This document shows positions 19,765-53,263 of a stretch of 64,000 bases of DNA, in pieces. The notes beneath the pieces were generated by a model. That model was not told the DNA's origin and did no database searches. It saw nothing but the letters and a program-made list of their open reading frames with translations. Position numbers and translations under genes: made by a program. Source of the stretch: Nemertoderma westbladi. Taxonomy: Eukaryota > Animalia > Xenacoelomorpha. Positions within the stretch are counted from its first letter, which is position 1; every line of letters starts with the position of its first letter. The stretch covers positions 1-64,000 of the forward strand of contig JAUCBJ010005512.1 in NCBI GenBank assembly GCA_032718475.1, read 5' to 3'.

Positions 19765-22700
19765 AATACAACCTAGGTTAAAAGATGTCTCTGGGTTTAA
19801 ATGAATCCCTTGATTAACACGATTCAATACAACCTAGGTTAAAAGATGTCTCTGGGTTTAAATGAATCCCTTGATTAACACGATTCAATACAACCTAGGT
19901 TAAAAGATGTCTCTGGGTTTAAATGAATGCCTTGATCAACACGATTCATTACAACCTAGGTTAAAAGATGTCTCTGGGTTTAAATGAATCCCTTGATCAA
20001 CACGATTCAATACAACGTAGGTTAAAAGATGTCTCTGGGTTTAAATTAATCGCTTGATTAACACGATTCAATACAACGTAGGTTAATAGATGTCTCTGGG
20101 TTTAAATGAATCCCTTGATTAACACGATTCAATACAACCTAGGTTAAAAGATGTCTCTGGGTTTAAATGAATCCCTTGATTAACACGATTCAATACAACC
20201 TAGGTTAAAAGATGTCTCTGGGTTTAAATTAATCGCTTGATTAACACGATTCAATACAACGTAGGTTAATAGATGTCTCTGGGTTTAAATGAATCCCTTG
20301 ATCAACACGATTCAATACAACCTAGGTTAAAAGATGTCTCTGGGTTTAAATGAATCCCTTGATCAATACGATTCAATACAACGTAGGTTAATAGATGTCT
20401 CTGGGTTTAAATGAATCCCTTGATCAACACGATTCAATACAACCTAGGTTAAAAGATGTCTCTGGGTTTAAATGAATCCCTTGATCAACACGATTCAATA
20501 CAACCTAGGTTAAAAGATGTCTCTGGGTTTAAATGAATCCCTTGATCAACACGATTCAATACAACCTAGGTTAAAAGATGTCTCTGGGTTTAAATGAATG
20601 CCTTGATCAACACGATTCAATACAACGTAGGTTAAAAGATGTCTCTGGGTTTAAATGAATGCCTTGATCAACACGATTCAATACAACCTAGGTTAAAAGA
20701 TGTCTCTGGGTTTAAATGAATGCCTTGATTAACACGATTCAATACAACCTAGGTTAAAAGATGTCTCTGGGTTTAAATGAATCCCTTGATTAACACGATT
20801 CAATACAACCTAGGTTAAAAGATGTCTCTGGGTTTAAATGAATCCCTTGATCAATACGATTCAATACAACGTAGGTTAATAGATGTCTCTGGGTTTAAAT
20901 GAATCCCTTGATCAACACGATTCAATACAACCTAGGTTAAAAGATGTCTCTGGGTTTAAATGAATCCCTTGATTAACACGATTCAATACAACCTAGGTTA
21001 ATAGATGTCTCTGGGTTTAAATGAATCCCTTGATTAACACGATTCAATACAACCTAGGTTAAAAGATGTCTCTGGGTTTAAATGAATCCCTTGATCAACA
21101 CGATTCAATACAACCTAGGTTAAAAGATGTCTCTGGGTTTAAATGAATCCCTTGATTAACACGATTCAATACAACCTAGGTTAAAAGATGTCTCTGGGTT
21201 TAAATGAATGCCTTGATCAACACGATTCATTACAACCTAGGTTAAAAGATGTCTCTGGGTTTAAATGAATCCCTTGATCAACACGATTCAATACAACCTA
21301 GGTTAAAAGATGTCTCTGGGTTTAAATTAATCCCTTGATTAATACGATTCAATACAACGTAGGTTAAAAGATGTCTCTGGGTTTAAATGAATCCCTTGAT
21401 TAATACGATTCAATACAACGTAGGTTAAAAGATGTCTCTGGGTTTAAATGAATCCCTTGATCAACACGATTCAATACAACGTAGGTTAAAAGATGTCTCT
21501 GGGTTTAAATGAATCCCTTGATTAATACGATTCAATACAACGTAGGTTAAAAGATGTCTCTGGGTTTAAATGAATCCCTTGATTAACACGATTCAATACA
21601 ACCTAGGTTAAAAGATGTCTCTGGGTTTAAACGAATCCCTTGATCAACACGATTCAATACAACCTAGGTTAAAAGATGTCTCTGGGTTTAAATGAATGCC
21701 TTGATCAACACGATTCATTACAACCTAGGTTAAAAGATGTCTCTGGGTTTAAATGAATCCCTTGATCAACACGATTCAATACAACCTAGGTTAAAAGATG
21801 TCTCTGGGTTTAAATGAATCCCTTGATTAACACGATTCAATACAACCTAGGTTAAAAGATGTCTCTGGGTTTAAACGAATCCCTTGATCAACACGATTCA
21901 ATACAACCTAGGTTAAAAGATGTCTCTGGGTTTAAATTAATCCCTTGATTAACACGATTCAATACAACGTAGGTTAAAAGATGTCTCTGGGTTTAAATGA
22001 ATCCCTTGATCAACACGATTCAATACAACCTAGGTTAAAAGATGTCTCTGGGTTTAAATGAATCCCTTGATCAACACGATTCAATACAACCTAGGTTAAA
22101 AGATGTCTCTGGGTTTAAATGAATCCCTTGATCAACACGATTCAATACAACCTAGGTTAAAAGATGTCTCTGGGTTTAAATGAATCCCTTGATTAACACG
22201 ATTCAATACAACCTAGGTTAAAAGATGTCTCTGGGTTTAAATGAATCCCTTGATTAACACGATTCAATACAACCTAGGTTAAAAGATGTCTCTGGGTTTA
22301 AATGAATCCCTTGATCAACACGATTCAATACAACCTAGGTTAAAAGATGTCTCTGGGTTTAAATGAATCCCTTGATTAACACGATTCAATACAACCTAGG
22401 TTAAAAGATGTCTCTGGGTTTAAATGAATCCCTTGATTAACACGATTCAATACAACCTAGGTTAAAAGATGTCTCTGGGTTTAAATGAATCCCTTGATTA
22501 ATACGATTCAATACAACGTAGGTTAAAATATGTCTCTGGGTTTAAATGAATCCCTTGATCAACACGATTCAATACAACCTAGGTTAAAAGATGTCTCTGG
22601 GTTTAAATGAATCCCTTGATTAACACGATTCAATACAACCTAGGTTAAAAGATGTCTCTGGGTTTAAATGAATCCCTTGATTAACACGATTCAATACAAC

Positions 22701-25700
22701 CTAGGTTAAAAGATGTCTCTGGGTTTAAATGAATCCCTTGATTAATACGATTCAATACAACGTAGGTTAAAATATGTCTCTGGGTTTAAATGAATCCCTT
22801 GATCAACACGATTCAATACAACCTAGGTTAAAAGATGTCTCTGGGTTTAAATGAATCCCTTGATTAACACGATTCAATACAACCTAGGTTAAAAGATGTC
22901 TCTGGGTTTAAATGAATGCCTTGATCAACACGATTCATTACAACCTAGGTTAAAAGATGTCTCTGGGTTTAAATGAATCCCTTGATCAACACGATTCAAT
23001 ACAACCTAGGTTAAAAGATGTCTCTGGGTTTAAATGAATGCCTTGATCAACACGATTCAATACAACCTAGGTTAAAAGATGTCTCTGGGTTTAAATGAAT
23101 CCCTTGATCAACACGATTCAATACAACCTAGGTTAAAAGATGTCTCTGGGTTTAAATGAATCCCTTGATCAACACGATTCAATACAACGTAGGTTAAAAG
23201 ATGTCTCTGGGTTTAAATGAATCCCTTGATTAACACGATTCAATACAACCTAGGTTAAAAGATGTCTCTGGGTTTAAATGAATCCCTTGATCAACACGAT
23301 TCAATACAACCTAGGTTAAAAGATGTCTCTGGGTTTAAATGAATCCCTTGATCAACACGATTCAATACAACGTAGGTTAAAAGATGTCTCTGGGTTTAAA
23401 TGAATCCCTTGATTAACACGATTCAATTCAACCTAGGTTAAAAGATGTCTCTGGGTTTAAATGAATGCCTTGATCAACACGATTCAATACAACCTAGGTT
23501 AAAAGATGTCTCTGGGTTTAAATGAATCCCTTGATCAACACGATTCAATACAACCTAGGTTAAAAGATGTCTCTGGGTCTAAATTAATCCCTTGATCAAC
23601 ACGATTCAATACAACCTAGGTTAAAAGATGTCTCTGGGTTTAAATTAATCCCTTGATTAATACGATTCAATACAACGTAGGTTAAAAGATGTCTCTGGGT
23701 TTAAATTAATCCCTTGATTAACACGATTCAATACAACGCAGGTTAAAAGATGTCTCTGGGTTTAAATTAATCGCTTGATTAACACGATTCAATACAACGC
23801 AGGTTAAAAGATGTCTCTGGGTTTAAATTAATCGCTTGATTAACACGATTCAATACAACCTAGGTTAAAAGATGTCTCTGGGTTTAAATGAATCCCCTGA
23901 TTAACACGATTCAATACAACCTAGGTTAAAATATGTTTCTGGGTTTAAATGTATCCCTTGATCAACACGATTCAATACAACGTAGGTTAATAGATGTCTC
24001 TGGGTTTAAATTAATCCCTTGATTAACACGATTCAATACAACCTAGGTTAAAAGATGTCTCTGGGTTTAAATGAATGCCTTGATTAACACGATTCAATAC
24101 AACCTAGGTTAAAAGATGTCTCTGGGTCTAAATGAATCCCTTGATCAACACGATTCAATACAACCTAGGTTAAAAGATGTCTCTGGGTTTAAATTAATCC
24201 CTTGATCAACACGATTCAATACAACCTAGGTTAAAAGATGTCTCTGGGTTTAAATGAATCCCTTGATTAACACGATTCAATACAACGTAGGTTAAAAGAT
24301 GTCTCTGGGTTTAAATGAATCCCTTGATTAACACGATTCAATACAACCTAGGTTAAAATATGTCTCTGGGTTTAAATGAATCCCTTGATTAACACGATTC
24401 AATACAACCTAGGTTAAAAGATGTCTCTGGGTTTAAATTAATCCCTTGATTAACACGATTCAATACAACCTAGGTTAAAAGATGTCTCTGGGTTTAAATG
24501 AATGCCTTGATTAACACGATTCAATACAACCTAGGTTAAAAGATGTCTCTGGGTTTAAATGAATCCCTTGATCAACACGATTCAATACAACCTAGGTTAA
24601 AAGATGTCTCTGGGTTTAAATGAATCCCTTGATCAACACGATTCAATACAACGTAGGTTAAAAGATGTCTCTGGGTTTAAATGAATCCCTTGATTAACAC
24701 GATTCAATTCAACCTAGGTTAAAAGATGTCTCTGGGTTTAAATGAATGCCTTGATCAACACGATTCAATACAACCTAGGTTAAAAGATGTCTCTGGGTTT
24801 AAATGAATCCCTTGATCAACACGATTCAATACAACCTAGGTTAAAAGATGTCTCTGGGTCTAAATTAATCCCTTGATCAACACGATTCAATACAACCTAG
24901 GTTAAAAGATGTCTCTGGGTTTAAATTAATCCCTTGATTAATACGATTCAATACAACGTAGGTTAAAAGATGTCTCTGGGTTTAAATTAATCCCTTGATT
25001 AACACGATTCAATACAACGCAGGTTAAAATATGTCTCTGGGTTTAAATTAATCGCTTGATTAACACGATTCAATACAACGCAGGTTAAAAGATGTCTCTG
25101 GGTTTAAATTAATCGCTTGATTAACACGATTCAATACAACCTAGGTTAAAAGATGTCTCTGGGTTTAAATGAATCCCCTGATTAACACGATTCAATACAA
25201 CCTAGGTTAAAATATGTTTCTGGGTTTAAATGTATCCCTTGATCAACACGATTCAATACAACGTAGGTTAATAGATGTCTCTGGGTTTAAATTAATCCCT
25301 TGATTAACACGATTCAATACAACCTAGGTTAAAAGATGTCTCTGGGTTTAAATGAATGCCTTGATTAACACGATTCAATACAACCTAGGTTAAAAGATGT
25401 CTCTGGGTCTAAATGAATCCCTTGATCAACACGATTCAATACAACCTAGGTTAAAAGATGTCTCTGGGTTTAAATTAATCCCTTGATCAACACGATTCAA
25501 TACAACCTAGGTTAAAAGATGTCTCTGGGTTTAAATGAATCCCTTGATTAACACGATTCAATACAACGTAGGTTAAAAGATGTCTCTGGGTTTAAATGAA
25601 TCCCTTGATTAACACGATTCAATACAACGTAGGTTAATAGATGTCTCTGGGTTTAAATTAATCCCTTGATTAACACGATTCAATACAACCTAGGTTAAAA

Positions 25701-28700
25701 GATGTCTCTGGGTTTAAATGAATGCCTTGATTAACACGATTCAATACAACCTAGGTTAAAAGATGTCTCTGGGTTTAAATGAATCTTTTGATCAACACGA
25801 TTCAATACAACGTAGGTTAAAAGATGTCTCTGGGTTTAAATGAATCCCTTGATTAACACGATTCAATACAACCTAGGTTAAAAGATGTCTCTGGGTTTAA
25901 ATGAATGCCTTGATTAACACGATTCAATACAACCTAGGTTAAAAGATGTCTCTGGGTTTAAATGAATCCCTTGATCAACACGATTCAATACAACGTAGGT
26001 TAAAAGATGTCTCTGGGTTTAAATGAATCCCTTGATTAACACGATTCAATACAACCTAGGTTAAAAGATGTCTCTGGGTTTAAATGAATCCCTTGATCAA
26101 CACGATTCAATACAACGTAGGTTAATAGATGTCTCTGGGTTTAAATGAATCCCTTGATCAACACGATTCATTACAACCTAGGTTAAAAGATGTCTCTGGG
26201 TTTAAATTAATCCCTTGATTAACACGATTCAATACAACCTAGGTTAAAAGATGTCTCTGGGTTTAAATTAATCCCTTGATTAACACGATTCAATACAACG
26301 TAGGTTAAAAGATGTCTCTGGGTTTAAATGAATCCCTTGATCAACACGATTCAATACAACGCAGGTTAAAAGATGTCTCTGGGTTTAAATTAATCCCTTG
26401 ATTAACACGATTCAATACAACCTAGGTTAAAAGATGTCTCTGGGTTTAAATTAATCCCTTGATTAACACGATTCAATACAACGTAGGTTAAAAGATGTCT
26501 CTGGGTTTAAATTAATCCCTTGATTAACACGATTCAATACAACCTAGGTTAAAATATGTCTCTGGGTTTAAATGAATCCCTTGATCAACACGATTCAATA
26601 CAACCTAGGTTAAAAGATGTCTCTGGGTTTAAATGAATCCCTTGATCAACACGATTCAATACAACGCAGGTTAAAAGATGTCTCTGGGTTTAAATTAATC
26701 CCTTGATTAACACGATTCAATACAACCTAGGTTAAAAGATGTCTCTGGGTTTAAATTAATCCCTTGATTAACACGATTCAATACAACGCAGGTTAAAAGA
26801 TGTCTCTGGGTTTAAATTAATCCCTTGATTAACACGATTCAATACAACCTAGGTTAAAAGATGTCTCTGGGTTTAAATGAATCCCTTGATCAACACGATT
26901 CAATACAACCTAGGTTAAAAGATGTCTCTGGGTTTAAATGAATCCCTTGATTAACACGATTCAATACAACCTAGGTTAAAAGATGTCTCTGGCTTTAAAT
27001 TAATCCCTTGATTAACACGATTCAATACAACGCAGGTTAAAAGATGTCTCTGGGTTTAAATTAATCCCTTGATTAACACGATTCAATACAACCTAGGTTA
27101 AAAGATGTCTCTGGGTTTAAATGAATCCCTTGATCAACACGATTCAATACAACGCAGGTTAAAAGATGTCTCTGGGTTTAAATTAATCCCTTGATTAACA
27201 CGATTCAATACAACCTAGGTTAAAAGATGTCTCTGGGTTTAAATTAATCCCTTGATTAACACGATTCAATACAACGCAGGTTAAAAGATGTCTCTGGGTT
27301 TAAATTAATCCCTTGATTAACACGATTCAATACAACCTAGGTTAAAAGATGTCTCTGGGTTTAAATTAATCCCTTGATTAACACGATTCAATACAACGTA
27401 GGTTAAAAGATGTCTCTGGGTTTAAATGAATCCCTTGATCAACACGATTCAATACAACGCAGGTTAAAAGATGTCTCTGGGTTTAAATTAATCCCTTGAT
27501 TAACACGATTCAATACAACCTAGGTTAAAAGATGTCTCTGGGTTTAAATGAATCCCCTGATTAACACGATTCAATACAACCTAGGTTAAAATATGTCTCT
27601 GGGTTTAAATGAATCCCTTGATCAACACGATTCAATACAACGCAGGTTAAAAGATGTCTCTGGGTTTAAATTAATCCCTTGATTAACACGATTCAATACA
27701 ACCTAGGTTAAAAGATGTCTCTGGGTTTAAATGAATCCCCTGATTAACACGATTCAATACAACCTAGGTTAAAAGATGTCTCTGGGTTTAAATGAATGCC
27801 TTGATTAACACGATTCAATACAACCTAGGTTAAAAGATGTCTCTGGGTTTAAATGAATCCCTTGATTAACACGATTCAATACAACCTAGGTTAAAAGATG
27901 TCTCTGGGTTTAAATTAATCCCTTGATTAACACGATTCAATACAACCTAGGTTAAAAGATGTCTCTGGGTTTAAATGAATCCCTTGATTAACACGATTCA
28001 ATACAACCTAGGTTAAAAGATGTCTCTGGGTTTAAATTAATCCCTTGATTAACACGATTCAATACAACCTAGGTTAAAAGATGTCTCTGGGTTTAAATGA
28101 ATCCCTTGATTAACACGATTCAATACAACCTAGGTTAAAAGATGTCTCTGGGTTTAAATGAATGCCTTGATCAACACGATTCAATACAACCTAGGTTAAA
28201 AGATGTCTCTGGGTTTAAATGAATCCCTTGATTAACACGATTCAATACAACCTAGGTTAAAAGATGTCTCTGGGTTTAAATTAATCCCTTGATTAACACG
28301 ATTCAATACAACCTAGGTTAAAAGATGTCTCTGGGTTTAAATGAATCCCTTGATTAACACGATTCAATACAACCTAGGTTAAAAGATGTCTCTGGGTTTA
28401 AATGAATGCCTTGATCAACACGATTCAATACAACCTAGGTTAAAAGATGTCTCTGGGTTTAAATGAATGCCTTGATCAACACGATTCAATACAACGTAGG
28501 TTAAAAGATGTCTCTGGGTTTAAATTAATCCCTTGATTAACACGATTCAATACAACCTAGGTTAAAAGATGTCTCTGGGTTTAAATTAATCCCTTGATTA
28601 ACACGATTCAATACAACCTAGGTTAAAAGATGTCTCTGGGTTTAAATGAATGCCTTGATCAACACGATTCATTACAACCTAGGTTAAAAGATGTCTCTGG

Positions 28701-30097
28701 GTTTAAATTAATCCCTTGATTAACACGATTCAATACAACCTAGGTTAAAAGATGTCTCTGGGTTTAAATTAATCCCTTGATTAACACGATTCAATACAAC
28801 CTAGGTTAAAAGATGTCTCTGGGTTTAAATTAATCCCTTGATCAACACGATTCAATACAACCTAGGTTAAAAGATGTCTCTGGGTTTAAATTAATCCCTT
28901 GATTAATACGATTCAATACAACCTAGGTTAAAAGATGTCTCTGGGTTTAAATTAATCCCTTGATTAACACGATTCAATACAACCTAGGTTAAAAGATGTC
29001 TCTGGGTTTAAATTAATCCCTTGATTAACACGATTCAATACAACGTAGGTTAAAAGATGTCTCTGGGTTTAAATGAATGCCTTGATCAACACGATTCAAT
29101 ACAACGTAGGTTAAAAGATGTCTCTGGGTTTAAATGAATCCCTTGATTAACACGATTCAATACAACGTAGGTTAAAAGATGTCTCTGGGTTTAAATTAAT
29201 CCCTTGATTAACACGATTCAATACAACCTAGGTTAAAAGATGTCTCTGGGTTTAAATGAATCCCTTGATTAACACGATTCAATACAACCTAGGTTAAAAG
29301 ATGTCTCTGGGTTTAAATTAATCCCTTGATCAACACGATTCAATACAACCTAGGTTAAAAGATGTCTCTGGGTTTAAATTAATCCCTTGATTAACACGAT
29401 TCAATACAACCTAGGTTAAAAGATGTCTCTGGGTTTAAATTAATCCCTTGATTAACACGATTCAATACAACCTAGGTTAAAAGATGTCTCTGGGTTTAAA
29501 TTAATCCCTTGATTAACACGATTCAATACAACGTAGGTTAAAAGATGTCTCTGGGTTTAAATGAATCCCTTGATTAACACGATTCAATTCAACCTAGGTT
29601 AAAAGATGTCTCTGGGTTTAAATGAATGCCTTGATCAACACGATTCAATACAACCTAGGTTAAAAGATGTCTCTGGGTTTAAATGTATCCCTTGATCAAC
29701 ACGATTCAATACAACCTAGGTTAAAAGATGTCTCTGGGTTTAAATGAATCCCTTGATCAACACGATTCAATACAACCTAGGTTAAAAGATGTCTCTGGGT
29801 TTAAATGAATCCCTTGATCAACACGATTCAATACAACCTAGGTTAAAAGATGTCTCTGGGTTTAAATGAATGCCTTGATCAACACGATTCATTACAACCT
29901 AGGTTAAAAGATGTCTCTGGGTTTAAATTAATCCCTTGATTAACACGATTCAATACAACCTAGGTTAAAAGATGTCTCTGGGTTTAAATGAATGCCTTGA
30001 TCAACACGATTCAATACAACCTAGGTTAAAAGATGTCTCTGGGTTTAAATGAATCCCTTGATCAACACGATTCAATACAACCTAGGTTAAAAGATGT
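19765..30097. repeat. 61-bp satellite array, about 169 copies
   Basis: Consensus caacctaggttaaaagatgtctctgggtttaaatgaatcccttgat(t/c)aacacgattcaata; the register shifts one base per 60-nt line. Confidence 0.98.
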
Positions 30098-30413
30098 GAA
30101 TACTAGAGGTCTCGCTACGCGGACCTACTAACGGAGTGAATACTAGAGGTCTCGCTACGCGGACCTAAAAACGGAGTGAATACTAGAGGTCTCGCTACGC
30201 GGACCTACTAACGGAGTGAATACTAGAGGTCTCGCTACGCGGACCTACTAACGGAGTGAATACTAGAGGTCTCGCTACGCGGACCTACTAACGGAGTGAA
30301 TACTAGAGGTCTCGCTACGCGGACCTAAAAACGGAGTGAATACTAGAGGTCTCGCTACGCGGACCTAAAAACGGAGTGAATACTAGAGGTCTCGCTACGC
30401 GGACCTAAAAACG
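30096..30413. repeat. 40-bp minisatellite, about 8 copies, each with a hairpin
   Basis: Unit gtgaatactagaggtctcgctacgcggaccta(ct/aa)aacgga directly abuts the 61-bp satellite. Confidence 0.95.
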
Positions 30414-31183: not shown

Positions 31184-32701
31184 GTCAAAGGTTACAAAAT
31201 ACCGAGTCGAAAGTTACAATTAGCCAGTCAAAGGTTACAAAATACCGAGTCGAAAGTTACAATTAGCCACTCAAAGGTTACAAAATACCGAGTCGAAAGT
31301 TACAATTAGCCACTCAAAGGTTACAAAATACCGAGTCGAAAGTTACAATTAGCCAGTCAAAGGTTACAAAATAACGAGTCGAAAGTTACAATTAGCCACT
31401 CAAAGGTTACAAAATACCGAGTCGAAAGTTACAATTAGCCACTCAAAGGTTACAAAATACCGAGTCGAAAGTTACAATTAGCCAGTCAAAGGTTACAAAA
31501 TACCGAGTCGAAAGTTACAATTAGCCAGTCAAAGGTTACAAAATACCGAGTCGAAAGTTACAATTAGCCAGTCAAAGGTTACAAAATACCGAGTCGAAAG
31601 TTACAATTAGCCAGTCAAAGGTTACAAAATACCGAGTCGAAAGTTACAATTAGCCAGTCAAAGGTTACAAAATACCGAGTCGAAAGTTACAATTAGCCAG
31701 TCAAAGGTTACAAAATACCGAGTCGAAAGTTACAATTAGCCACTCAAAGGTTACAAAATACCGAGTCGAAAGTTACAATTAGCCAGTCAAAGGTTACAAA
31801 ATACCGAGTTGAAAGTTACAATTAGCCAGTCAAAGGTTACAAAATACCGAGTCGAAAGTTACAATTAGCCAGTCAAAGGTTACAAAATACCGAGTCGAAA
31901 GTTACAATTAGCCAGTCAAAGGTTACAAAATACCGAGTCGAAAGTTACAATTAGCCAGTCAAAGGTTACAAAATACCGAGTCGAAAGTTACAATTAGCCA
32001 GTCAAAGGTTACAAAATACCGAGTCGAAAGTTACAATTAGCCAGTCAAAGGTTACAAAATACCGAGTCGAAAGTTACAATTAGCCACTCAAAGGTTACAA
32101 AATACCGAGTCGAAAGTTACAATTAGCCAGTCAAAGGTTACAAAATACCGAGTTGAAAGTTACAATTAGCCAGTCAAAGGTTACAAAATACCGAGTCGAA
32201 AGTTACAATTAGCCAGTCAAAGGTTACAAAATACCGAGTCGAAAGTTACAATTAGCCAGTCAAAGGTTACAAAATACCGAGTCGAAAGTTCCAATTAGCC
32301 AGTCAAAGGTTACAAAATACCGAGTCGAAAGTTACAATTAGCCAGTCAAAGGTTACAAAATACCGAGTCGAAAGTTACAATTAGCCAGTCAAAGGTTACA
32401 AAATACCGAGTCGAAAGTTACAATTAGCCAGTCAAAGGTTACAAAATACCGAGTCGAAAGTTACAATTACCCAGTCAAAGGTTACAAAATACCGAGTCGA
32501 AAGTTACAATTAGCCACTCAAAGGTTACAAAATACCGAGTCGAAAGTTACAATTAGCCAGTCAAAGGTTACAAAATACCGAGTCGAAAGTTACAATTAGC
32601 CAGTCAAAGGTTACAAAATACCGAGTCGAAAGTTACAATTATCCAGTCAAAGGTTACAAAATACCGAGTCGAAAGTTACAATTAGCCAGTCAAAGGTTAC
32701 A
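31184..32701. repeat. 43-bp minisatellite, about 35 copies (22+21 bp subrepeats)
   Basis: Unit gtcaaaggttacaaaataccgagtcgaaagttacaattagcca. Confidence 0.97.
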
Positions 32702-32923
32702 CAATTCAATTACATTACCCCAAGTTTTGCAAGAATAATTTGCTGCTAATAGCAGGTCAATGGTTTCAAATTACGAGTAAATGTAAATATTGAATGGGAG
32801 AATCTTTTAGGCTCGTTAAGCCAATGAATGCCTTTCACCACCATGGGTGAACAGTAAATCAGATCCACAGTAAACCCTTCCACTCTGTTTCCCAAGTTGC
32901 CTTGGTTCCCATTTATCGACAAG

Positions 32924-33933: not shown

Positions 33934-35101
33934 TGTAAAAGCTTTTGCGTCATTAACCGGTTATTTTCCCTTAAAGTACTCTGTAGTTGGTTTGCCAGGC
34001 ATAAAAAGGCCGTGTCCTTGCTGTACTGGTGTTTTAGAGGACATAAAAGTCATTTCTTCTGTATTTGTACTGTATTTGTACTTTAGAGGACATAATCCGC
34101 AATCTCGTGACGCGATAAGCTAGATACTCTTGAAAACAGTGTCGCTACCATGACGACGGCTAGCAGCTGATATTGCCACGTCGACATTTCTTTGTTTCTT
34201 TGTTCTCTCGTTGTTCGGTTGACCAATCAGAGCGTTTTTTGTCTCTGTGTTGGAGGTGTATACAGAACTCAGTAGTTCAGTGTTATGTTTTTGCCCAGAG
34301 CCTAAGAACATCGGATTTTGGCACCTCCGTGTTTTCAGTCTTTAGTCTTACATTAGTAGGCTTAATTATAGAACGTATATCTGTTATCACGAGTTACACA
34401 AGTTAACTCATTCACTTAATAATCATTTATACATTAATATTACTGCTTTTACTGTCGGTTATTCATTATATTGGTTGATGAATTATTATATCGGAATACT
34501 GATCAATAGTCAGACACCCCACCTTCTTGATATACAAAAGGTTAGAGAGACCGGTTACAGATAAACGATTGCGACCTATGTTGAGTGGTTTGAAGTGAAT
34601 CTAATGCTATTTCATATGCCCAACATAAATTGTCTGTTGCTCTCTTTATACGTGACCAAATTTAGTGAAGGTCGGCAGATTAGTGTGCAGTATTGTGCAG
34701 CATTGTGTATGAGTGTAACTGATAACAAAGCATCTCCTAAAGAATGCGCCATATACGTGAATCTATAGCCTTTTCGTTGTGTCTAGTTTAAGCCATAACT
34801 CTGTTTACATATTTAGAGCGCCACGTCCTAAAGGAACTGTTAATATTTCCCGAAAGTGAATAATATTTGTCAGAGATTATATATTACGATCAGTCGAATA
34901 ATACAGTAGGCTTACACCATCAATCATTAAGCCCCGAACTCAGTCTCCCGGGTATATCCAACGGGTGAATGATTGCGCATAGACTGGCTTCGGCTAATGT
35001 AGTGTATCAAATACTCGTCATAGGCTAAAGACTATCTATCATCCAAAAGACATTCTAATTTTGGCAGGTTAAACTGTCAAAGGTCTTCAAAAGCGCAAAC
35101 A
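33934..35101 (+). repeat. 5' LTR of element 1
   Basis: tgtaaaagcttttg...caaaagcgcaaaca; direct repeat of 45579-46746. Confidence 0.96.
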
Positions 35102-35112
35102 ATAACAGATAT
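35102..35112 (+). promoter_or_regulatory. Non-tRNA primer-binding site, complementary to LTR positions 34377-34387
   Basis: ataacagatat abuts the LTR with no TGG and is the exact reverse complement of atatctgttat in the LTR. Confidence 0.75.
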
Positions 35113-37307
35113 TGCTTCTGGATTGCGGTGTAAGCAATCAAGTCTAAAGTACCGGTACCGGTTGAACGGTAACCTGTACTGCTGTAGGCCTGTAGGCCCA
35201 ACTGCCCGAACCGGTACTTACGGTACAGGTACATCAGTATTATTCGATTTTGATAATTATATACCGGTAGGCCTCAATAATTAATCAGGGACGGCCGCCC
35301 TGGTTTTTTATTGAGATTTTACTTGTTTCTGTCAAGTTTTATTTATTTGTAGGCCAGTATTGAGCAGAAGGCGTGTAAGCCTGCGCAGATTGTACAGATA
35401 ATTTGTAGGCTTGACTGTTGGCTGACTGTTGATTAGGTCTGAACGGATTGCAGTGCATGTAGAGTGTATGTCCGATAAAGAACGGTTAGGAAGTAGGGGC
35501 AGCCATTGCTGTAAGGTAAACCCCCATCTAAAGAATAAGTCGTACTAGGGCCTACTGGGTTAGAACGCATACTACTTAACCATTTCGGAGTCTGCATGTC
35601 CTGTGGTTTATTTAGGCCTGATAGGAGTCCGCCGGCGTTTGGTCTGTACTTTGTTTGTGTAGTCTGTACGGGTAGCGTATAATTTTATTTAGATAATTTG
35701 TAGGCTGGATAGTTGTCTGGCTGCTGTTGGGTTTGAGGAAATTTCGGTGTGTGTAAAGCATCTGTCCGATAAAGAACGGTTAGGAAGTAGGGGCAGCCAT
35801 TGCTGTAAGGTAAACCCCCATCTAAAGAATAAGTCGTACTACTGGGTTAGAACGCATACTACTTAACCATTTCGGAGTCTACATATACCGTAGTTTGTTT
35901 AGGCTTGATAGTAGTCTGTCAGTATTTGGTCTGCATTTTGTTTGAATGGTTTGTACGCGTAGCGTAATATTTATTATTCAGAGTTTATGCGATTATTCGC
36001 AACATTCATTCCCCAAGTTTGTTCCTACAGTAATTGTGTTTGTTATACATACCGTTATAGTTAAACTAACCCCGGTACTATACGGGCTGCTTGGCGTAGG
36101 TAAAGACTGGTGATTTTGTGCACCGGTCACTCCAGCAGATGCCGTGGTTCTTTTAGCTGTTCAAGTATTTTTAACTACTAATTATTTGTTATACAAGTAT
36201 TTGTACCTAATTTAGGGTTTAGTGTACAGTGCTTTCCGAAAGCAATTAGTGTGTAGGCAGTATATTTGTGTTGTAAAGTGGTTAATAGGCACGTTGGTTC
36301 TGGTAGACCTCGGTAATTAACTTCTAGGTAGGGACACTCCGTGATACATAACGTAGTACCTATAGCGATACGGTTATAGGTCGTCAGGCGGTGGTATTTT
36401 CCTATCTGGACAGCGCAGTATATTTACTACTACTTATTATTTTCAAATACCGTAGTAACCTGTCCGTTGTAATAACCAGATATTCTAACCCTTTGTTAGG
36501 CTGGTTAGTAAACTTCTTGTAAAATTACCCTAAAAATTTGTATTTGTGTATTTGTAATTAAATTTTTGTGTTTATTTAGAGATTGTAATCTCAACCCGAA
36601 TTGTACGTAATTTATAGTATTAAGTAACTTAGGTAAATTAGAATTATTTGTTTTAGTGTCTAACAAGTAGCACTCCACTGAGAGCGCACAGCTTATGTGT
36701 AGTGACTCCCCCAGAAATAATAACATTTATTTCAAACATTGACAAAACCCATTAAACGGGTATATATATATTATAAATCAACTCAAACGATTTATAAATA
36801 GTAGGCCTGCCATACAACAATTAGGTCTCAATATCAGTTGGACTACTGCTTAAATAACGGTAATAAAGTAAGTTAAAGTAACCAAGTAACCCTTAAAATT
36901 CAGAAATTCAATTATTTAAAATAATTGATATACCGGTATTTACGATAGGCCTATTATATATTTATATACTTGTGCTGAAATCATACCGGTATTCTGTAAT
37001 TAATTCTAGTCTGTAATTATACTTATATATATACATTATAGGTGTAAACTGCATACCGGTATCCACGATAGGCCTATTATATATTTATATATATTTGTGC
37101 TAAAATTATATACCGGTTTCTGTGAAAAACCTAGTCTGTAATAATACTTATATATACAATAAGCATACCGGTATTCTAATATTATATATATATCACGCTA
37201 CACTGAGTAGCAGTATCGGTAATTAATTACTAGGCTAGCAGTTAATACTGAATTACTAGACTTACTTAGACTGTAATAGCAGTAGACATTCAACTGTGTA
37301 AACAAAC

Positions 37308-40300
37308 ATGTCTGATACTAAGCAGAACCTGTCAGACAGTTTATTAGATGTAACTATCTGCGACTCAGATAGAGGTGTAGAACCGTCTAGTCCTAAGTTC
37401 AGTTCACCTCCCACTGTGAGGAAGGTCATCCCTCCAGTAGTAATAACAGAACCTAGGCTGGTCCAACATCGTAGGTCTATCATAGGCACTCGAGCTCAGG
37501 TCAAGCGGGACCAAGAAGCAGCGGAACAGCAACAACCCGCGAGCCAAGAACTTATTTCTCAGCGGCCCGACAGCTCCAGTAGTGAAGATACTGTAGAACT
37601 GACACCCGAGCGCGGAGCAAAGATGACGGATGCGGTTTATTCGGATCCCCTTCTCATCCTTCCTGCAGCCGTACTCACTAGGTTATTGATCGCGGTGGAA
37701 GAACACCAGATCGATTGGGCGAGAAGTAAGCGATCAACTAAAGATAGTTATGAGGGATACACAAGGGAAGAACTGAAGTCTATGGTCGAGTCGCAATGGA
37801 ACTTCCCCGGACCCGGACTCCCGTTTGATTTATCAGAAGCTGCCTGGGAAGACATACACCGGATGGGAGTAGCCAAGGAAACCATCGATCCAGCTGTATG
37901 GAAGAGGTCCGCAGCCGGATACGCACAAGGATTCTTCAGCTCTATGGAGCGAGTAGAAAAACAACAACCTCAAGGACCTCAAGAGCAGGGACAACTGCTT
38001 TATCAAGTTAGAGAAAGAATTCTGCGAATTAGGCTAATCTTATCGGCCTTTGAGGAGGCTTCTAAAAGAAGACAAGACACGTCGTTGCAAGTTGCCGTAA
38101 AGACTTGGTTTCAACGTGTGAGTCGCCAGGTTCAAGGAACAGCTCAGTGGAAAGCTCAGCTGGAGGAGCGCTCAACCCATGGAGAATCAACAGACGCTAC
38201 TTTTTCCCAAGTGGAAAGTGAAGCGACGGCAGAGAAACCGCATAAGAGGGATGCCATTGACATCTATCTGTCAGACTATCAGCGTTTTTTGGGAGACGAA
38301 GAGTTGAGGAGAAGGCTAGATGGACTTAGCCCTAATAGTGAAGGAGCCCAGCGTGTGTTGGACGCAATTGATGTGGATAGGTTAGCGGCGAACCAAGCTA
38401 AATTCGATGAACAACTCCGCATCGCTAGAGACCAAGAAGAAAGGGTGAAGAAAAAACGCATAGAAGACAGAAAGAAAGCAGCAGTAGCAGCGGCAGAAGC
38501 GGAACGAAAAGCGGTAGAAGTGGATAGAAAAGCGGCAGAGGAAGCGGCAGAGGCAGCGGCAGAGGCAAAAGCGGCAGCGGCAGAGGCAAAAGCGGCAGCT
38601 GCAGCAGTAGAAGCCGAAAGAAAGGTGGCCGAAGCGGAAAGAAAGGTGGCAGCAGCAGAAGCGAAAAGAAAAGCATCTGAAATGGAAAGAAAAGCGGCAA
38701 TGGCAGCGGCAGAAGCAGAACGGATAGCGGCTGAAGAGATCGCCCAATTAGAATTGGAAAATATTCAGGAGAATCAAGACTGCATAAATAAACAGTTAAC
38801 AGCTAGTAATATGCAGATGATGAATCGATCTACTCCCAAAAGACAGGGATATACATCATCTGAGGAAGGCGATACCACCGATACTGAAGGCAAAGGAAAT
38901 AGATCTCACCTAAGCAGACGCAAAAGAACATTCCACCGTCAAAAATTGCCTGATTTGCCTCCAGCTGTTAGAAGGCAACTAAATAACACCAACTTAGGTA
39001 GTACAGAACCCACAGACCAAATAATTACAATAGAGAGACTCCCTACTATAGTAGATGAGCCTGAAATAGTTAGGTCTGTTCCCGAAGCCACCCTTTCGGT
39101 CGTAGAGACACCTGTCCTCCCTGAACCTACCTCTCAATTCCCTTTGCACAGCACTAAGCTACCTGTGCCCAGCAGAACAGCCCATGAGACAGTTCATGCC
39201 CTGGACTCCGAGCAAAATATTCATGATTTGTCGCCCGTTGTCCCTCGTCCGCCCGCTACAACGTTGGCGAATCCCGCTTCGGCGGTTGAATGGGTGGATG
39301 AGAGACAACGGGGGATGGATCTCCTGCTCGGACAGATGCAGGAGACCGTTCAGCAATTCAAGGGCACAGTAAGGGAAAGTAGGCTAGAGTTGCAAGAAGT
39401 GCAGCAAAGTATCGCGTTAGAACGCGATAAATTAGTAAATACACAAAAGGGTATACCACCACCCCCTGTAACAATGTGTCAACCTGTTAGGTCTGAAGTA
39501 TCTCATGCGCGCGCAAGGTGTGGAGCCTACACGCATCTATACTGCTAGCGAAGTAGAAACTCCTATAGTGAACCCTATTAAGGGTAATTATAGACCTGTT
39601 GATAATGATATTCCCTATAGACCGGATCATAATCCGAGAAATTTATATACCGATAACTCGATATTAAATAACACGATGGCCCAAGAAAGTTTTACGCGTC
39701 AAATGGCTAGAACCGAAGCCCGGCAAGCGGTAAAGGTGGGAGAGATCGTCAAGTTCAATGGAGATGAGATGAAATGGTTACCTTTTAATGAATATTACAA
39801 AGATAACATACAGAACTCTGTGCTATCTAATGGAGAGAAACTTAGATTCCTCATCGAGTGCTTGGAAGGATCTCCCAAGTTAATGGCGTTAAAGTTTATT
39901 GGACATCCAGACGGATTAAGACAAGTTTGGGATACACTAAACATCAGGTATGGTAATAGGAATAACATAGCTGGGTATTTGTATGCAAAGTTGGTAGCGC
40001 CCCGAAAGTTTCTTAGCAGCGGGATTATAGAGTTTTCCGATGAAATTCAGGAGATCTGCAGACAATTAGATTGGCTAGGTAAGTCTCATGAGTATCAGAG
40101 TGCTATGGTTATTAGAGCAGTGGCTTCTACTTTACCGAAGGGTGGAGTAGGTACACGCTGGGATAAGAAAGTGTTATATATGATGGAACAACAACGACGA
40201 GATCCTACCATGGCTGATCTCATGTCATTCCTAGATGGAGAAGTGAAATTACAGCTCCTGAAACTGTCCAGAGAGAAGACACCGGAAAACAAGGTAAGTG

Positions 40301-42324
40301 AAAAACCCGTCGCTAGGAGAAAGGTAACACCAGTGTGTTATACAGATGATGGCGAAAGCCAGACTTCTCAAGGAGAAGATAGCGGGAAAGACACTGACAG
40401 ATCTTATTACGTAAATAAAATGCCTAAAGATCAGGTAAGTAAATTCAAGTCTCGAACAAATGACAGGAGAGAACAGGTAAGAAAAACTCCTCCTACGTCT
40501 CCCAAGAGAATTCAGGTGAGAAAGCCCGAAGAAAAAGCAAGTGTACACAATGTTACTCAGAGTAAGGTAAGTAACATCAAACCGAAATGTGCGCTATGTG
40601 ATGGGACCCATCGCTTAAATATGTGTGATGAATTTCTAAAGAAATCATTAACTGAGAGACGTGAAGTCATGTGGGACAAGCGGTTGTGCTATAATTGCCT
40701 CAGACGAGGACACCAACGGCGAACCTGTTACTCCGACGCAAGGTGTGCAAAGTGCGGTGCGAAACATCATATCTTGTTGCACACTGAATTCGAGCGAAAT
40801 AGTCCGAGTCAGGTGAGTGATTCCGAACTACATGTGCAATTCAGTGATGTGAACGACACTGATCAATCTGAGATGGAAGGATTCTATACGGACGAGTTCT
40901 CCGACGAAAACGAATCCTGTTACATGATAAATACCGCAGTGTATCGAGCACTCACTCATGAAAAAGATACAGACAGCGACCTCACCCTAACTACTTCAGA
41001 TCAACAACAATCTTGGAAAGCGCCAACTTCAAATGTAGGAATCTGAGAATTTCCTGTAGTCCAGTTACGGGTCCACGGACCTCAGAAGAGCTATATAGTG
41101 AACGCCCTCCTGGACTCCGGCAGCACAGGAACATTCATCGATAAAGAACTAGCCGAAGACATCTTTGCTGGACAACCCAAGTTCCGAACCAAGCTAAACA
41201 TGTCAGGGATCATGCAGGTTTGGAAATCTGCTGTGGCTGCCGACTATTATATAGGTGAGTTGTCCACACCACAGGATAAACTAGGAGAATACAGTATAAG
41301 GTCAGTCAAAATGGTGGCAATAAAGAACTTCGCTACCACCCAAGTGGAACCTTATAATTGGGACGAAGATGATCATGCCCAACAACTTAACATTCCTAGA
41401 TTCGACACCGATTATCCTGGAGTACAAATATTAATCGGTCAAAACGCGCATGAGGCGCTGGAGACATTGGAGAAACGACCTGCTCAACCGCAACCACTTC
41501 AGACCTATGCGGTAAGAACTAGAGTAGGTTGGTACCTTACTGGACCTTCCCGAAGAACGCTCAGAGAAAGACTGCTTCAAGATCGCGTCTGCCAAGTGAG
41601 TGAATGGGAAGATGATACTAGTGAGGGAGACGACCCAACTGAGGGAACACCATACTCCTCAGATAATGACGATATTAGCTCCAATGTAGATCAATGGAGA
41701 TATTGCCCCAAGAAGTTTAATCCAACTGACATCGCTTCCAGAGGAGCAACTCCTCAAGAACTGACAGATACTACAGACCGGTTAGGTGAACCCGACTTCC
41801 TGAGTAAGGAGGATGAATGGCCTCCCCATCTTACTCCGACTGAGATTAGACCAGCCAAGGGAGCGGAGAAAGTCAAACCTAAAACCCGGACGGGTGGATC
41901 GGAGTTATTTGAACCCGGGATAGATCTGTCGGTATTACATATTGCCAGAGACGACGCCGTGGATCTGGACCTCCCCACCGCGAGTGGATCCTCCATGAAG
42001 ATCAGAGAGAGCGATTGGAGCTCTGGAACATCAGACGTCTCGCAGGGACTCTCACCTCTCCTGCAGGGAGCGACGGACCACTATAGCTCCTGGAATCGGC
42101 TTTGTAAGGCCGTCGTGTACCTAGAGCGATGTTTCTATCGTCACTATTCCAGGACGAAGAGGAAACCTGGAATTGTATTCGGGATGCAGCGACTCAATCA
42201 CCCAGTCGGTCGTTTGTGTTTACCGGAAGGGAATGGAGGACTCTCCGGAAACTGTGGAAGGCAAGATTCTCTTCCCACGACCACCTCCCTAATCCTTCAA
42301 ACATCTAGGGACTCCATAACGTAA
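37308..42324 (+). pseudogene. gag-pol: gag-protease-(delta RT, delta IN) polyprotein of element 1
   Basis: Three ORF pieces joined by a frameshift near 39507 and a TGA at 41044. Triple Zn knuckle and ALLDSGS protease present. RT and most of RNase H are missing at ~41675; integrase is missing at ~42158. Confidence 0.92.
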
Positions 42325-43970
42325 CAACATATGGAGTGGGTGTGTGACTCTATTATTTTGTATTTGTTTTATTTTTATATTTATGTATGTATTATTATGT
42401 AATTTTATTTTAATCGTTTTATTTAATTTTATTTAGTAGTATGGTATTTTAGAGATTATTTAGTAGATTAGTGCAATATATATTCGCGTTTATTATTTAA
42501 TTACGTATATTATATATTTAGTGCGACGGCGAGAAATAATTCTTTTTCTCTTTCCTTACTGCCCGTATTACATTATCAATACGTGACTACAGTAAGATGA
42601 AATCTTCGTACTTATTAAAGTACAATAAAGCCACTACTATATTCAAGTATTATTGGTAGGCAGAGTATTAGGAATGCAAAGTTCAGATCCTCGTGTCTCG
42701 GCTAAACCAAGCTCTGGGTAGACCTTGGAAACGACTTGCCTCTTCACACTGACATTGCTTCGTGCGATATTGCTCTCATACCGTATATTAAATAATACAT
42801 ATAGTAGCGTGATGTCCCTTTAACAGTAGCGTATAACGCAAATTAAATCTGTTAAACCCTTTGACCATATGTAATTCTAGTCGATTAAGATATCGCAGCA
42901 CCCACCGATATACTTGAAAGACAAATTCTAGAATCAATGGTTAACGTCCCCAGACAAGTTCTGGAATAAACTGGTGCCCATCCTAAATATTAATTATTAA
43001 TATTTACAAAAATCTGTCAAATATCAGATCCTTTAAAATTCTAGTCGATTAAGATATCGTAGCACTTACCGATACTCTTAAAAGGACAAAATTCCTAGAA
43101 TCAAGGATCCCAGTCCCCAGACACGTTCTGGAATCAAATTGTGTCAATTTAACATTAAATAATAAAATTTACGGGAATAAATTTAAATTCATATATTTCA
43201 ATCAATTTAATAAATTGTCATTTTGTACAATTTATAACATTCCCAAAATTCCATTAATTAATAGATCATGGGAGCGGAGATTCACTCTATTAAGTGTATT
43301 TGTGTGCGAGAATCTCCAATGTATAGTCAATAGCCGATAAAATTCATAGAATCATGTATAAAGGGGATATTGACCATTAAAGAATTACTATTAAATAGCA
43401 TCCCAGATCTGTATGCATGAGAATTACCCTAATTCTACCGCTAGCTTTCCATAATGTCACCATGGCAACAACCACGCTAGAATTAGAAGTGAGTTAAAAG
43501 AACAATAGAAAGCATGCCCCATTGAATAGCATAGGGAATAAATAGCGCACTGCTAGTATCCAAGGATACATAATAAATACAGTGACATTCTGGAAGGTAC
43601 TGACTAACGGACAAATGGCCCGAATGTGTGATAGAATGTGTACAATTTGTGACAGTTACGTGGAATTTGTGCGTTTGTAGGTGAATGTTACTACTAAGGT
43701 GTGTTTACAGTAGCGAGTCGCAATTGTGAAAGTAACCCTAACTCTCCAGTAAGAACCTGAAGTATATCTAAGCCTTTGGGACGGACGGTGGAGTGGCTCG
43801 TGCTGGTTGTTGTAGTCGTTGTGCAGCTACGACGTTGGCGATAGGCACATCGGCGAAAGTACACCAGCGCTGAGGATCTCGCACTGTCCGGGGGCAGAGA
43901 GGGGTAGGCAGCGACGCCCGCTCGCCTGAATATAAACTCATTATAATATGGATAAATTTATATAGCAGAT

Positions 43971-45500
43971 ATGATTGAGTTGATAGAAGATGATCTTGGT
44001 ATCAGGGAGCGATATACTCTACCTTTACAAGCGTTTGTCGATATCTTGATACGCGGCGACGCTGGTCCAACTGCTGCGGAGGACGATGGTCGTTATATCG
44101 AACCGCCAATGTCCCAAGAGCAGCTCACGCGTGAGTTGGACTATAGAAAATTCACCGCTCGCTATACGCATCGTAATGGTACGTATGTGGACTTCTTAAC
44201 TACTGGTCATCCTATCGACCTACACGATACGGACGATATAGACACCGAAAGGGAAATGGTTTTATTTAAATATCATACCCAGCGGAAGCGGAACGATAAA
44301 TTGAGACTCGAACACGAAAATTCTATTCGAAACCGACTCGAAAGTGCAGATGTCGAAGAGCCGGATAAACGCAGCGACTCCACCAAATACCTGGAATTCT
44401 TGAGATAAACCTATCTCGATATTACCAGTCAACAGAATCTAGAAACTCTATATCCTCAAGGTATACATCATGACCGCATGGTAGAACTCAAACGGTTCTA
44501 TTCCACTATGATGTATCTTACCGCCGATCGACCGCTACCTGTTGTACCGGATAGCTTCGAACGGATGGAAGAATATTGTAAGCTGGAGAAAGATCACTCG
44601 CGTTTCCCCTACAAGACGTGCGTTATTGGTATTTTGCGATGAATGCCCAAGACCCAACCAACAAACGGAAAGACATAAACATCCGCGGAGACGTTGCACT
44701 AAACACGGTTTTACTCGCTATACTTGCGGGAGTTTCGAGCGAAATTTGTTTGACGTATCACCTACGCTCGTTCGACTCAGACAATCCTTAAATAAACCAA
44801 TGATCAGAGTTTCGGAATACTCGATCAGATCTCCTCATTCCCTAGTGAGACCTCAGACTCTTGATCCTATTAGTATGACGGATCCTCCCGAGCTGTACTC
44901 ACTGTTCAAAGATCTAGTGTTACCTGAACAATTAGTCGGTGGCACCCGGTTGTGGGCTTCCTAGATATTAGCCCATCCTACCTAGCCGGATTGGGACGCG
45001 GACATTTAATATCGCCGTTTAACCCTTACCATCGTCCCGGCTTAACACGATATACGCGATATAACCTGTCACCAAAGTGGCGGAGAACGTTGTACCAAAC
45101 GAGTTAAACGCTATTCTACAAAGATCAGAAAGGAAACCTGCGTTTGTTCAGATAAACGTAAGTTGTAACAGCAAGTCCAAGCGATAAACGAATTGTCTTT
45201 ATCTCAGTTCGATTGTGAAATCCAGAATCTCTAAGAAGATATCGAACTTAGACAACCCCATGCTCTGCGAGAGTTTTTGGATGAACGTATCCAGCTACGA
45301 GCGGAGGAAAATCAGCTCGAGGAGAAGCATATCGAAACGGCGGATACCCCGACCATAATCCTACACCTTCTGATGCAATCATATTGCACCCTTCACCCAG
45401 GATTTATAGCCCTCCTAGTAAAGTGGCTCGCCCCAAAGAGAAAAGGACTCTTGCTAGCCTCAAAAAACTGCGTAAACGCCGTCTGCGTAAGAAAGACTAA
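43971..45500 (+). pseudogene. Accessory 3' ORF of element 1 (unknown protein, disrupted)
   Basis: Protein-like frames continue through stops and frameshifts, including FCDEC..HKHPRRRCTKH and a basic tail KKLRKRRLRKKD*; the N-terminus is conserved at 63792. Confidence 0.7.
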
Positions 45501-45578
45501 CTGTTTAGAGTATCTTTATATTTTAGAAACTGTGATTTGTTATATTTTATAGACTTAAATCCCATTTTCTGGGAGCGG

Positions 45579-46746
45579 TGTAAAAGCTTTTGCGTCATTA
45601 ACCGGTTATTTTCCCTTAAAGTACTCTGTAGTTGGTTTGCCAGGCATAAAAAGGCCGTGTCCTTGCTGTACTGGTGTTTTAGAGGACATAAAAGTCATTT
45701 CTTCTGTATTTGTACTGTATTTGTACTTTAGAGGACATAATCCGCAATCTCGTGACGCGATAAGCTAGATACTCTTGAAAACAGTGTCGCTACCATGACG
45801 ACGGCTATCAGCTGATATTGCCACGTCGACATTTCTTTGTTTCTTTGTGCTCTCGTTGTTCGGTTGACCAATCAGAGCGTTTTTTGTCTCTGTGTTGGAG
45901 GTGTATACAGAACTCAGTAGTTCAGTGTTATGTTTTTGCCCAGAGCCTAAGAACATCGGCTTTTGGCACCTCCGTGTTTTCAGTCTTTAGTCTTACATTA
46001 GTAGGCTTAATTATAGAACGTATATCTGTTATCACGAGTTACACAAGTTAACTCATTCACTTAATAATCATTTATACATTAATATTACTGCTTTTACTGT
46101 CGGTTATTCATTATATTGGTTGATGAATTATTATATCGGAATACTGATCAATAGTCAGACACCCCACCTTCTTGATATACTAAAGGTTAGAGAGACCGGT
46201 TACAGATAAACGATTGCGACCTATGTTGAGTGGTTTGAAGTGAATCTAATGCTATTTCATATGCCCAACATAAATTGTCTGTTGCTCTCTTTATACGTGA
46301 CCAAATTTAGTGAAGGTCGGCAGATTAGTGTGCAGTATTGTGCAGCATTGTGTATGAGTGTAACTGATAACAAAGCATCTCCTAAAGAATGCGCCATATA
46401 CGTGAATCTATAGCCTTTTCGTTGTGTCTAGTTTAAGCCATAACTCTGTTTACATATTTAGAGCGCCACGTCCTAAAGGAACTGTTAATATTTCCCGAAA
46501 GTGAATAATATTTGTCAGAGATTATATATTACGATCAGTCGAATAATACAGTAGGCTTACACCATCAATCATTAAGCCCCGAACTCAGTCTCCCGGGTAT
46601 ATCCAACGGGTGAATGATTGCGCATAGACTGGCTTCGGCTAATGTAGTGTATCAAATACTCGTCATAGGCTAAAGACTATCTATCATCCAAAAGACATTC
46701 TAATTTTGGCAGGTTAAACTGTCAAAGGTCTTCAAAAGCGCAAACA
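45579..46746 (+). repeat. 3' LTR of element 1
   Basis: Near-identical to 33934-35101, preceded by a purine-rich tract. Confidence 0.96.
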
Positions 46747-53250: not shown

Positions 53251-53263
53251 GTAACAGTTTATA
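53251..53263 (+). promoter_or_regulatory. Non-tRNA primer-binding site, complementary to LTR positions 52484-52496
   Basis: gtaacagtttata is the exact reverse complement of tataaactgttac. Confidence 0.78.

Follow-up and report, generated by a model that had tools for sequence, protein, structure and literature searches.

Apparent Tf1-like self-priming in BEL/Pao retrotransposons whose PBS is complementary to their own LTR

Two related BEL/Pao retrotransposons in the 64,000-nucleotide stretch of DNA analysed here (the window) probably begin minus-strand DNA synthesis from their own RNA, in the manner of Tf1. Many relatives from marine animals are predicted to prime likewise. This reading of the window elements had been put forward in an initial annotation of the window and gains support from two sides: pretzel-type helices are predicted to flank the PBS, and the PBS is self-complementary in 27 of 36 related elements.

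Two BEL/Pao elements and a solo LTR

The window contains two related LTR elements and one solo LTR, located as follows.

16712-17907, minus strand: solo LTR of the same family as elements 1 and 2, with the target-site duplication (TSD) AAAGC
33934-35101, plus strand: 5′ LTR of element 1, 1168 bp, TG..CA ends
37302-42324, plus strand: gag-pol of element 1, broken and internally deleted
45571-45578, plus strand: polypurine tract (PPT) of element 1, adjoining the TG of the 3′ LTR
45579-46746, plus strand: 3′ LTR of element 1, 1168 bp, with the primer tract again at 46022
52041-53250, plus strand: 5′ LTR of element 2, 1210 bp, the 3′ LTR lying beyond the window
55403-62170, plus strand: open Gag-Pol frame of element 2, 2255 codons from stop to stop

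The hallmarks of LTR elements were found, namely LTRs with TG..CA ends, a TSD and, in element 1, a PPT before the 3′ LTR. Element 1 is 12.8 kb long, has GGCTT as its TSD and carries a pair of LTRs with 4 differences over 1168 bp. An open Gag-Pol frame is present in element 2 only; residues 988-1575 and 1737-2198 of that frame have no match in element 1, which is thus missing RT, RNase H and most of the integrase.

The Pfam matches to the element 2 frame are Peptidase_A17 (8e-35), DUF1759, DUF5641 and an integrase zinc domain. Its RT, RNase H-region and integrase motifs, which we take to be catalytic, align with those of relatives, and the order PR-RT-RH-IN was found. PF05380 is present in all 76 protein matches, the best identities being about 40%, and the named matches come from a fish, a nemertean, an oyster, insects, a nematode and an arachnid. 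Both elements are assigned to BEL/Pao by their polyprotein only, the RT-RNase H trees comprising PF05380-bearing proteins with neither a gypsy nor a copia outgroup; the Pao-type Pfam domains uphold the class that had been annotated. The Pfam search gave no chromodomain match in the polyprotein and, as there is no Ty3/gypsy chromovirus Pol with a chromodomain, the elements fall outside the Tf1/sushi group. A profile search of solved structures returned only weak matches, to foamy-virus integrase.

A tract inside the LTR is complementary to the PBS

The candidate self-primers and the sites with which they could pair are these.

34377-34387, plus strand: candidate self-primer of element 1 (LTR 444-454), next base C
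35102-35112, plus strand: PBS of element 1, adjoining the CA of the LTR, without TGG
52484-52496, plus strand: candidate self-primer of element 2 (LTR 444-456), next base C
53251-53263, plus strand: PBS of element 2, the complement of LTR 444-456

The complementarity that had been annotated is exact over 11 nt in element 1 and over 13 nt in element 2. The partner site ends, as annotated, at LTR position 454 in element 1 and 456 in element 2, and the solo LTR was confirmed to retain the element 1 tract at 17459-17469 (LTR 439-449, minus strand). Pairing begins in both elements at the first base after the CA of the LTR (offset 0). Neither PBS has a TGG 0-5 nt from the LTR, in agreement with the reported lack of a TGG-starting tRNA PBS, and ARAGORN found no tRNA genes in the window. 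A published criterion for self-primers, as given in the available part of its source, asks for a complement of at least 10 bp whose start lies 0-5 nt past the end of the LTR (PMC6317226); here we find 11 and 13 bp at offset 0.

The claim of compensatory changes between the elements was borne out as well. The two tracts differ by two substitutions and one insertion, and each of the three differences is mirrored in the PBS. On the gapless MAFFT columns, tract and PBS give seven unchanged pairs, four changed on both sides and two broken. Swapping the primers between the elements leaves weak pairs (-6.1 and -5.7 kcal/mol, against -10.5 and -13.9 kcal/mol for each element's own pair). During plus-strand synthesis in retroviruses and Tf1, the primer is copied into the PBS. 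Covariation of primer and PBS is expected under such a mechanism, so that it marks the tract as a primer and does not by itself imply selection.

Complementarity of the observed length at offset 0 was reached in 18 of 20,000 dinucleotide shuffles of the LTR for element 1 and in 2 of 20,000 for element 2, or in 59 and 11 of 20,000 with offsets 0-4 allowed; because the elements share ancestry, their two p-values are not independent. Along the leader of element 1, a length of 11 nt is reached from two of the 2,183 start positions, namely offset 0 and one in a conserved U5-leader helix, while a single one of 2,132 reaches 13 nt in element 2, again offset 0. The elements are 37% identical over LTR 1-443 and 70% identical over LTR 541-1168, a jump that would be expected if R begins near the tract and that would put the U3/R change somewhere close to it.

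Several other sources of a primer 3′ end were considered and set aside. A known ribozyme making a 3′-OH was dropped, Rfam giving nothing near the gathering score in either LTR-leader. The tract has no GT after it, and first-step splicing would thus be unable to free it. A spliced primer was likewise rejected for the window elements, the best strict junction reaching 8 in element 1 and 7 in element 2 against 11 and 13 for the contiguous match, as was a 16-nt junction in element 2, with a poor donor and an AG that is missing from element 1 and the solo LTR.

In Logan contigs from 2-4 runs, which cover the LTR deeply, are unable to link tract with PBS and are not counted as evidence, no tract or PBS variant was seen among 40 of the 51 variant rows. 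The exact 22-nt LTR motif occurs in none of the metagenome contigs searched. The four viral contigs in which a 16-nt motif occurs were put down to chance, and of eight candidates from a protein scan of viral contigs none was confirmed.

Predicted helices on both sides of the PBS

In the Tf1 group the pretzel consists, according to the available part of the report, of a central primer/PBS duplex with one duplex on each side (10.1101/2022.12.06.519325). The helices predicted here on both sides of the PBS would fit that description and are new for these elements.

34973-34978 with 35093-35098, plus strand: upstream pretzel arm of element 1, predicted
34910-34918 with 35127-35135, and 34893-34904 with 35237-35248, plus strand: U5-leader helices of element 1 enclosing the PBS, predicted
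53049-53058 with 53267-53276, 53038-53047 with 53283-53292, and 53013-53024 with 53391-53402, plus strand: U5-leader helices of element 2, predicted

All 6 pairs of the upstream arm are present in each of the three LTRs, one of them changed on both sides. The downstream arms are 9-12 bp in length, and an LTR insertion specific to element 2 pairs with a leader sequence that is also specific to element 2. When the fold ends about 40 nt into the leader the primer-PBS helix has a probability of 0.5-1.0; when 320 nt of leader are included it has a probability of 0.0, which counts against the simple picture. The helix is probably lost in the longer fold because leader bases pair back into the LTR, and such pairing would turn the primer helix into a pseudoknot, which the nested folding of ViennaRNA can neither draw nor score. 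Element 2 has another stem that competes with the upstream arm, and the arm is missing from its single-sequence fold. Judged by their sequences, all three pretzel duplexes are possible in both elements, the pseudoknot itself lying outside the scoring of nested folding.

A predicted internal lock on the primer tract

A second set of partners for the tract is predicted within the LTR itself; we call this pairing, which is new here, the lock. Its strands were placed as follows.

34720-34727 with 34382-34389 (primer 3′ half), plus strand: lock strand 1 of element 1, predicted
34751-34758 with 34373-34380 (4 nt upstream and the primer 5′ half), plus strand: lock strand 2 of element 1, predicted
52840-52846 with 52491-52497, 52869-52878 with 52480-52489, and 52884-52891 with 52464-52471, plus strand: lock strands of element 2, predicted
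17085-17092 and 17054-17061, minus strand: lock strands of the solo LTR

A further lock helix is predicted about 20 nt upstream of the tract, and matched changes extend that far. The last primer base changes from T to C, and an A changes to G in both the PBS and the lock strand. Of the 9 pairs of lock helix 2, 8 are retained both in element 1 and in the solo LTR, with two changes on both sides, and helix 3 has 5 of 8 pairs in element 1 (two changes on both sides) and 4 of 8 in the solo LTR; these counts need a one-base gap moved into the primer, both helices looking broken on MAFFT's own columns. A formal pair count over the three sequences, which mis-bracketed three crossing helices, gave three changes on both sides (28 of 500 shuffles, not significant), with slid controls reaching up to 5. 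Two ordered lock helices of this total length arose in 19 and 16 of 3,000 shuffles, by a statistic devised after the fact.

Freeing the primer costs more when upstream bases are added to the fold: from 3.6 to 7-8 kcal/mol in element 1 and from 1.1 to about 9 kcal/mol in element 2. The solo LTR lacks this trend, its cost falling from 7.2 to 2.2. Since the matched changes of the lock go beyond what copying by RT would produce, they would imply selection. The lock needs RNA upstream of 444 and would thus form either in the 3′ copy (U3-R) or in transcripts that start upstream of the tract.

Contiguous-type primer tracts of two related loci (L089:6297-6358 and L029:1079-1285) are also predicted to pair inside the LTR, an observation that is weak because most bases pair in such folds.

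Self-complementary PBS in related elements

We assembled 90 loci, 80 of the 509 confirmed in an incomplete metagenome scan and 10 from MAG contigs. A repeat flanks the ORF on both sides in 37 of them, and the other 53 have none or no room for one. Thirty-six were scored; L020, with degraded ends, was omitted, only its contiguous match being looked at (7 nt after AG). The PBS is self-complementary over at least 10 nt in 27 of the 36, through a GT..AG splice junction in 21 and contiguously in 6; several of these positives are the same family in different samples, and distinct families number nearer 19. The remaining 9 of 36 have no 10-nt Watson-Crick match.

Where the LTR ends were defined by the repeat, 14 of 17 elements have a match of at least 10 Watson-Crick pairs at offsets 0-4. 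The match is contiguous in 2 of these and runs through a GT..AG junction in the other 12, whose donors are mostly of the GTAAGT type; L005 reaches 11 with G-U pairs, and L085 and L084 fall short. Cross-pairs between elements reach 10 in 14 of 342 combinations, every one of them between sister elements. With ends defined by the scan, which makes them partly circular, second-best candidates at times reaching 10-12, the first set gave 7 positives out of 9, all of the junction type (for L091 this is the candidate ranked second, which agrees with the repeat length), and the second set gave 6 out of 10 (4 contiguous, 2 junction).

In the 28 positive relatives (including L005) and the two window elements, the paired PBS starts with GT in 25, AT in 3 and AG in 2, both of the last carrying GT one base on. 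The primer nearly always ends in A-pyrimidine. The base after it is C in the window elements and in all six contiguous relatives, and the same eight have, as was noted post hoc, a pyrimidine-A step at -2..+1 of the pairing start. Of the 15 junction-type LTRs examined, 14 have a poly(A) hexamer at a distance of 1-98 nt downstream from the primer end.

The closest relatives are 36-46% identical to element 2 in RT-RNase H. A FastTree phylogeny of this region (100 sequences, rooted on a nematode element, loci with fewer than 250 aligned residues dropped) places element 2 as a long branch in a clade with 0.99 support that holds all typed loci, contiguous and junction types being interleaved; six of the type labels were added from the second scan-defined set. 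Ten contigs filed in bacterial MAGs (L085-L094) carry BEL/Pao elements. They are likely animal DNA, because several have TG..CA LTRs, a PPT and sites of spliceosomal type.

A model for self-priming and its alternatives

Under Tf1-like self-priming, transcription would start at LTR 444 or some tens of bases upstream of it. The tract would pair with the PBS, which helices on both sides would hold open in a pseudoknotted pretzel. The element's own RT/RNase H might then cut directly behind the tract, between its A-pyrimidine end and the following C, so as to leave a 3′-OH on the first base after the CA of the LTR. DNA synthesis from there would continue through U5 and R as far as the cut, and its product would transfer to the 3′ R. 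Plus-strand synthesis would later copy the primer, and the PBS would in this way track each primer change. The lock, needing bases upstream of 444, could hide the tract in the 3′ R copy or up to the time of packaging; the same task would fall, in most relatives, to an intron in the LTR that interrupts the primer. Element 1 may be mobilised in trans by element-2-like copies.

More tentatively, the relatives and the window elements may belong to a BEL/Pao branch that does without tRNA priming, cuts at a conserved A-pyrimidine site and is gated by an intron or by a U3-dependent lock, the gate having been switched more than once. It is conceivable, at a similarly tentative level, that within such a branch the interchangeable gates let only the 5′ R copy prime, by an intron in most relatives and by the lock in this family.

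A self-derived primer might also act in trans, supplied by a short LTR transcript or by the 5′ part of the partner RNA in a packaged dimer. We consider this unlikely, with some features in its favour: the primer-PBS helix crosses the U5-leader helices, so that any long, structured extension at the 5′ end would need to pass through a closed loop; the matched pairing reaches about 20 nt upstream of 444; and the unspliced template and spliced primer of splice-type relatives could be two molecules. However, the same kind of pretzel forms within one Tf1 mRNA, according to the available part of that report (10.1101/2022.12.06.519325), and the pyrimidine-A step near the pairing start, although a post hoc observation, fits an 11-14-nt primer at the cap.

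We give only a slim chance to the pairing being a structural switch, in translation or packaging or in 5′-3′ circularisation, while a host tRNA fragment or small RNA primes. The tract does have two mutually exclusive partners, the PBS and the lock, and the six bases common to both tracts resemble what we take to be the anticodon loop of tRNA-Asn. Moreover, the ICTV calls the family tRNA-primed (PMC8742986), and one of 17 relatives (L027) has TGG at offset 1. A switch of this kind fits poorly with the want of a TGG in either PBS and with a pairing that runs from the first base after the CA. The PBS variants differ at base 1 and from base 8 on, and therefore no single host RNA fits both; in the relatives, the PBS is complementary to a splice junction, which is present in RNA only.

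The initial annotation had left two options for the primer. Its first, the cleaved 5′ part of the RNA, is the one favoured here, whereas the second, the processed RNA 3′ end with R ending at 454/456, appears very improbable. CA, a common context of poly(A) cleavage, does follow the tract in element 1, and a variant hexamer lies 38 nt upstream of the tract in element 2, but this hexamer is missing from element 1 and the solo LTR. No AATAAA or ATTAAA occurs upstream of the tract in element 1, element 2 or the solo LTR, the 80 nt downstream are G-poor, not GU-rich, and 14 of 15 splice-type relatives have their poly(A) signal downstream of where the primer ends; a poly(A) tail would, in addition, require removal. 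Finally, chance complementarity in A+T-rich DNA, for which the A+T-rich 1.2-kb LTR and the occurrence of both sites in only two related elements of the window could be cited, is largely refuted by the shuffles (18 and 2 of 20,000), the homologous position, the matching of all three changes and the recurrence in distant relatives.

Comparison with known priming systems

Like the window elements, Tf1 and Tf2 of Schizosaccharomyces pombe, Tj1, Tosmo1-3 and the Tf1/sushi group of Ty3/gypsy chromoviruses lack a tRNA PBS and have in the LTR a tract, about 11 nt long, that is complementary to the PBS. Two more duplexes between PBS-adjacent sequence and the LTR form the pretzel in that group, as far as the available part of the source describes it, and are predicted here. 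In the cycle described for Tf2, again in the part of the paper available, RT cuts the primer free (PMC5341516). The primer of the Tf1/sushi elements is the 5′ end of the transcript; that of the window elements may lie at the cap or some tens of bases inside the transcript. Unlike this group, the window elements have a BEL/Pao polyprotein with no chromodomain match, a distance of 714-754 nt from primer to LTR end and a predicted internal lock, and their relatives build the primer across a splice junction.

With the Belpaoviridae the elements share LTRs, a PPT, a single Gag-Pol in PR-RT-RH-IN order, Pao-type Pfam domains and animal-associated relatives (PMC8742986). In the ICTV description, genomes of this family measure 4.2-10 kb, their 18-nt PBS pairs with the 3′ end of tRNA-Arg or tRNA-Gly, and replication is called 'poorly understood' (PMC8742986). 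In contrast, the PBS in the window is self-complementary and not of tRNA type, and element 1 spans 12.8 kb.

Self-priming has been predicted, by the criterion cited above, for the plant lineages Tcn1 (gypsy) and TAR/Houba/Osr-1 (copia), which belong to other superfamilies and for which the available part of the source mentions no covarying lock or spliced primer (PMC6317226). The available parts of three papers give self-priming for Tf1/sushi, Tcn1 and TAR (PMC6317226, PMC4600332, PMC5341516). Three BEL/Pao surveys make no mention of PBS, tRNA or priming in their main texts (PMC554778, PMC3118150, PMC6238403), and nothing on BEL/Pao self-priming appears in the available parts of four further papers (PMC3601003, PMC8220671, PMC6934838, PMC8672886). 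In a search of openly available main texts we found no prior report of BEL/Pao self-priming. What would be new is self-priming of the Tf1 type in a superfamily that is described as tRNA-primed, together with a predicted pretzel and lock and a cut-site signature that the relatives share.

Self-priming having been described for Tf1/sushi gypsy elements and predicted for one copia lineage, BEL/Pao would represent a third origin, apparently widespread, in animal elements. If so, the ICTV entry on BEL/Pao would change, the failure of PBS finders on many marine BEL/Pao elements might be explained, and a simple sequence rule would be at hand for finding self-priming members. The two gates bear on a question raised by any self-priming element, namely how the identical 3′ copy of the primer is spared from use or cutting.

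Other features of the LTRs and the window

Within 34541-35067 and 52680-53216, AG/GTTAG occurs at about LTR 608-640 in all three LTRs, and TTTGGCAG, also kept in all three, lies 34 nt before the LTR end; the two could bound an intron downstream of the primer, to judge from their sequence. The stretch between them is the best conserved and is also predicted to be highly structured. An invariant stretch at 34893-34905 carries AATACA, possibly a variant poly(A) signal, and is predicted in both elements to form 11-12 pairs with the leader; through this pairing it would be masked in the 5′ copy only. The 80 nt after the primer (34388-34470 and 52497-52575) are poorly conserved in sequence and G-poor, with 7, 3 and 3 G in element 1, element 2 and the solo LTR, respectively.

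The leaders are 2.2 kb long and contain tandem repeats of about 290 bp and about 125 bp (35396-35982, 53542-54124 and 36930-37156). Between pol and the 3′ LTR, both elements have an extra sense-strand ORF (43956-45552 in element 1, where it is broken, and 63777-64000 in element 2, where it runs off the window), for which no Pfam match and no longer homologue were found. Elsewhere, satellite arrays occupy 19765-30097 (61 bp, 169 copies), 30096-30407 (40 bp) and 31184-32705 (43 bp), and an RVT_1 reverse-transcriptase fragment, probably from a non-LTR element, lies at 18334-19506. A large direct duplication was found in 1-10378, where 1-4452 and 5926-10378 are 96% identical.
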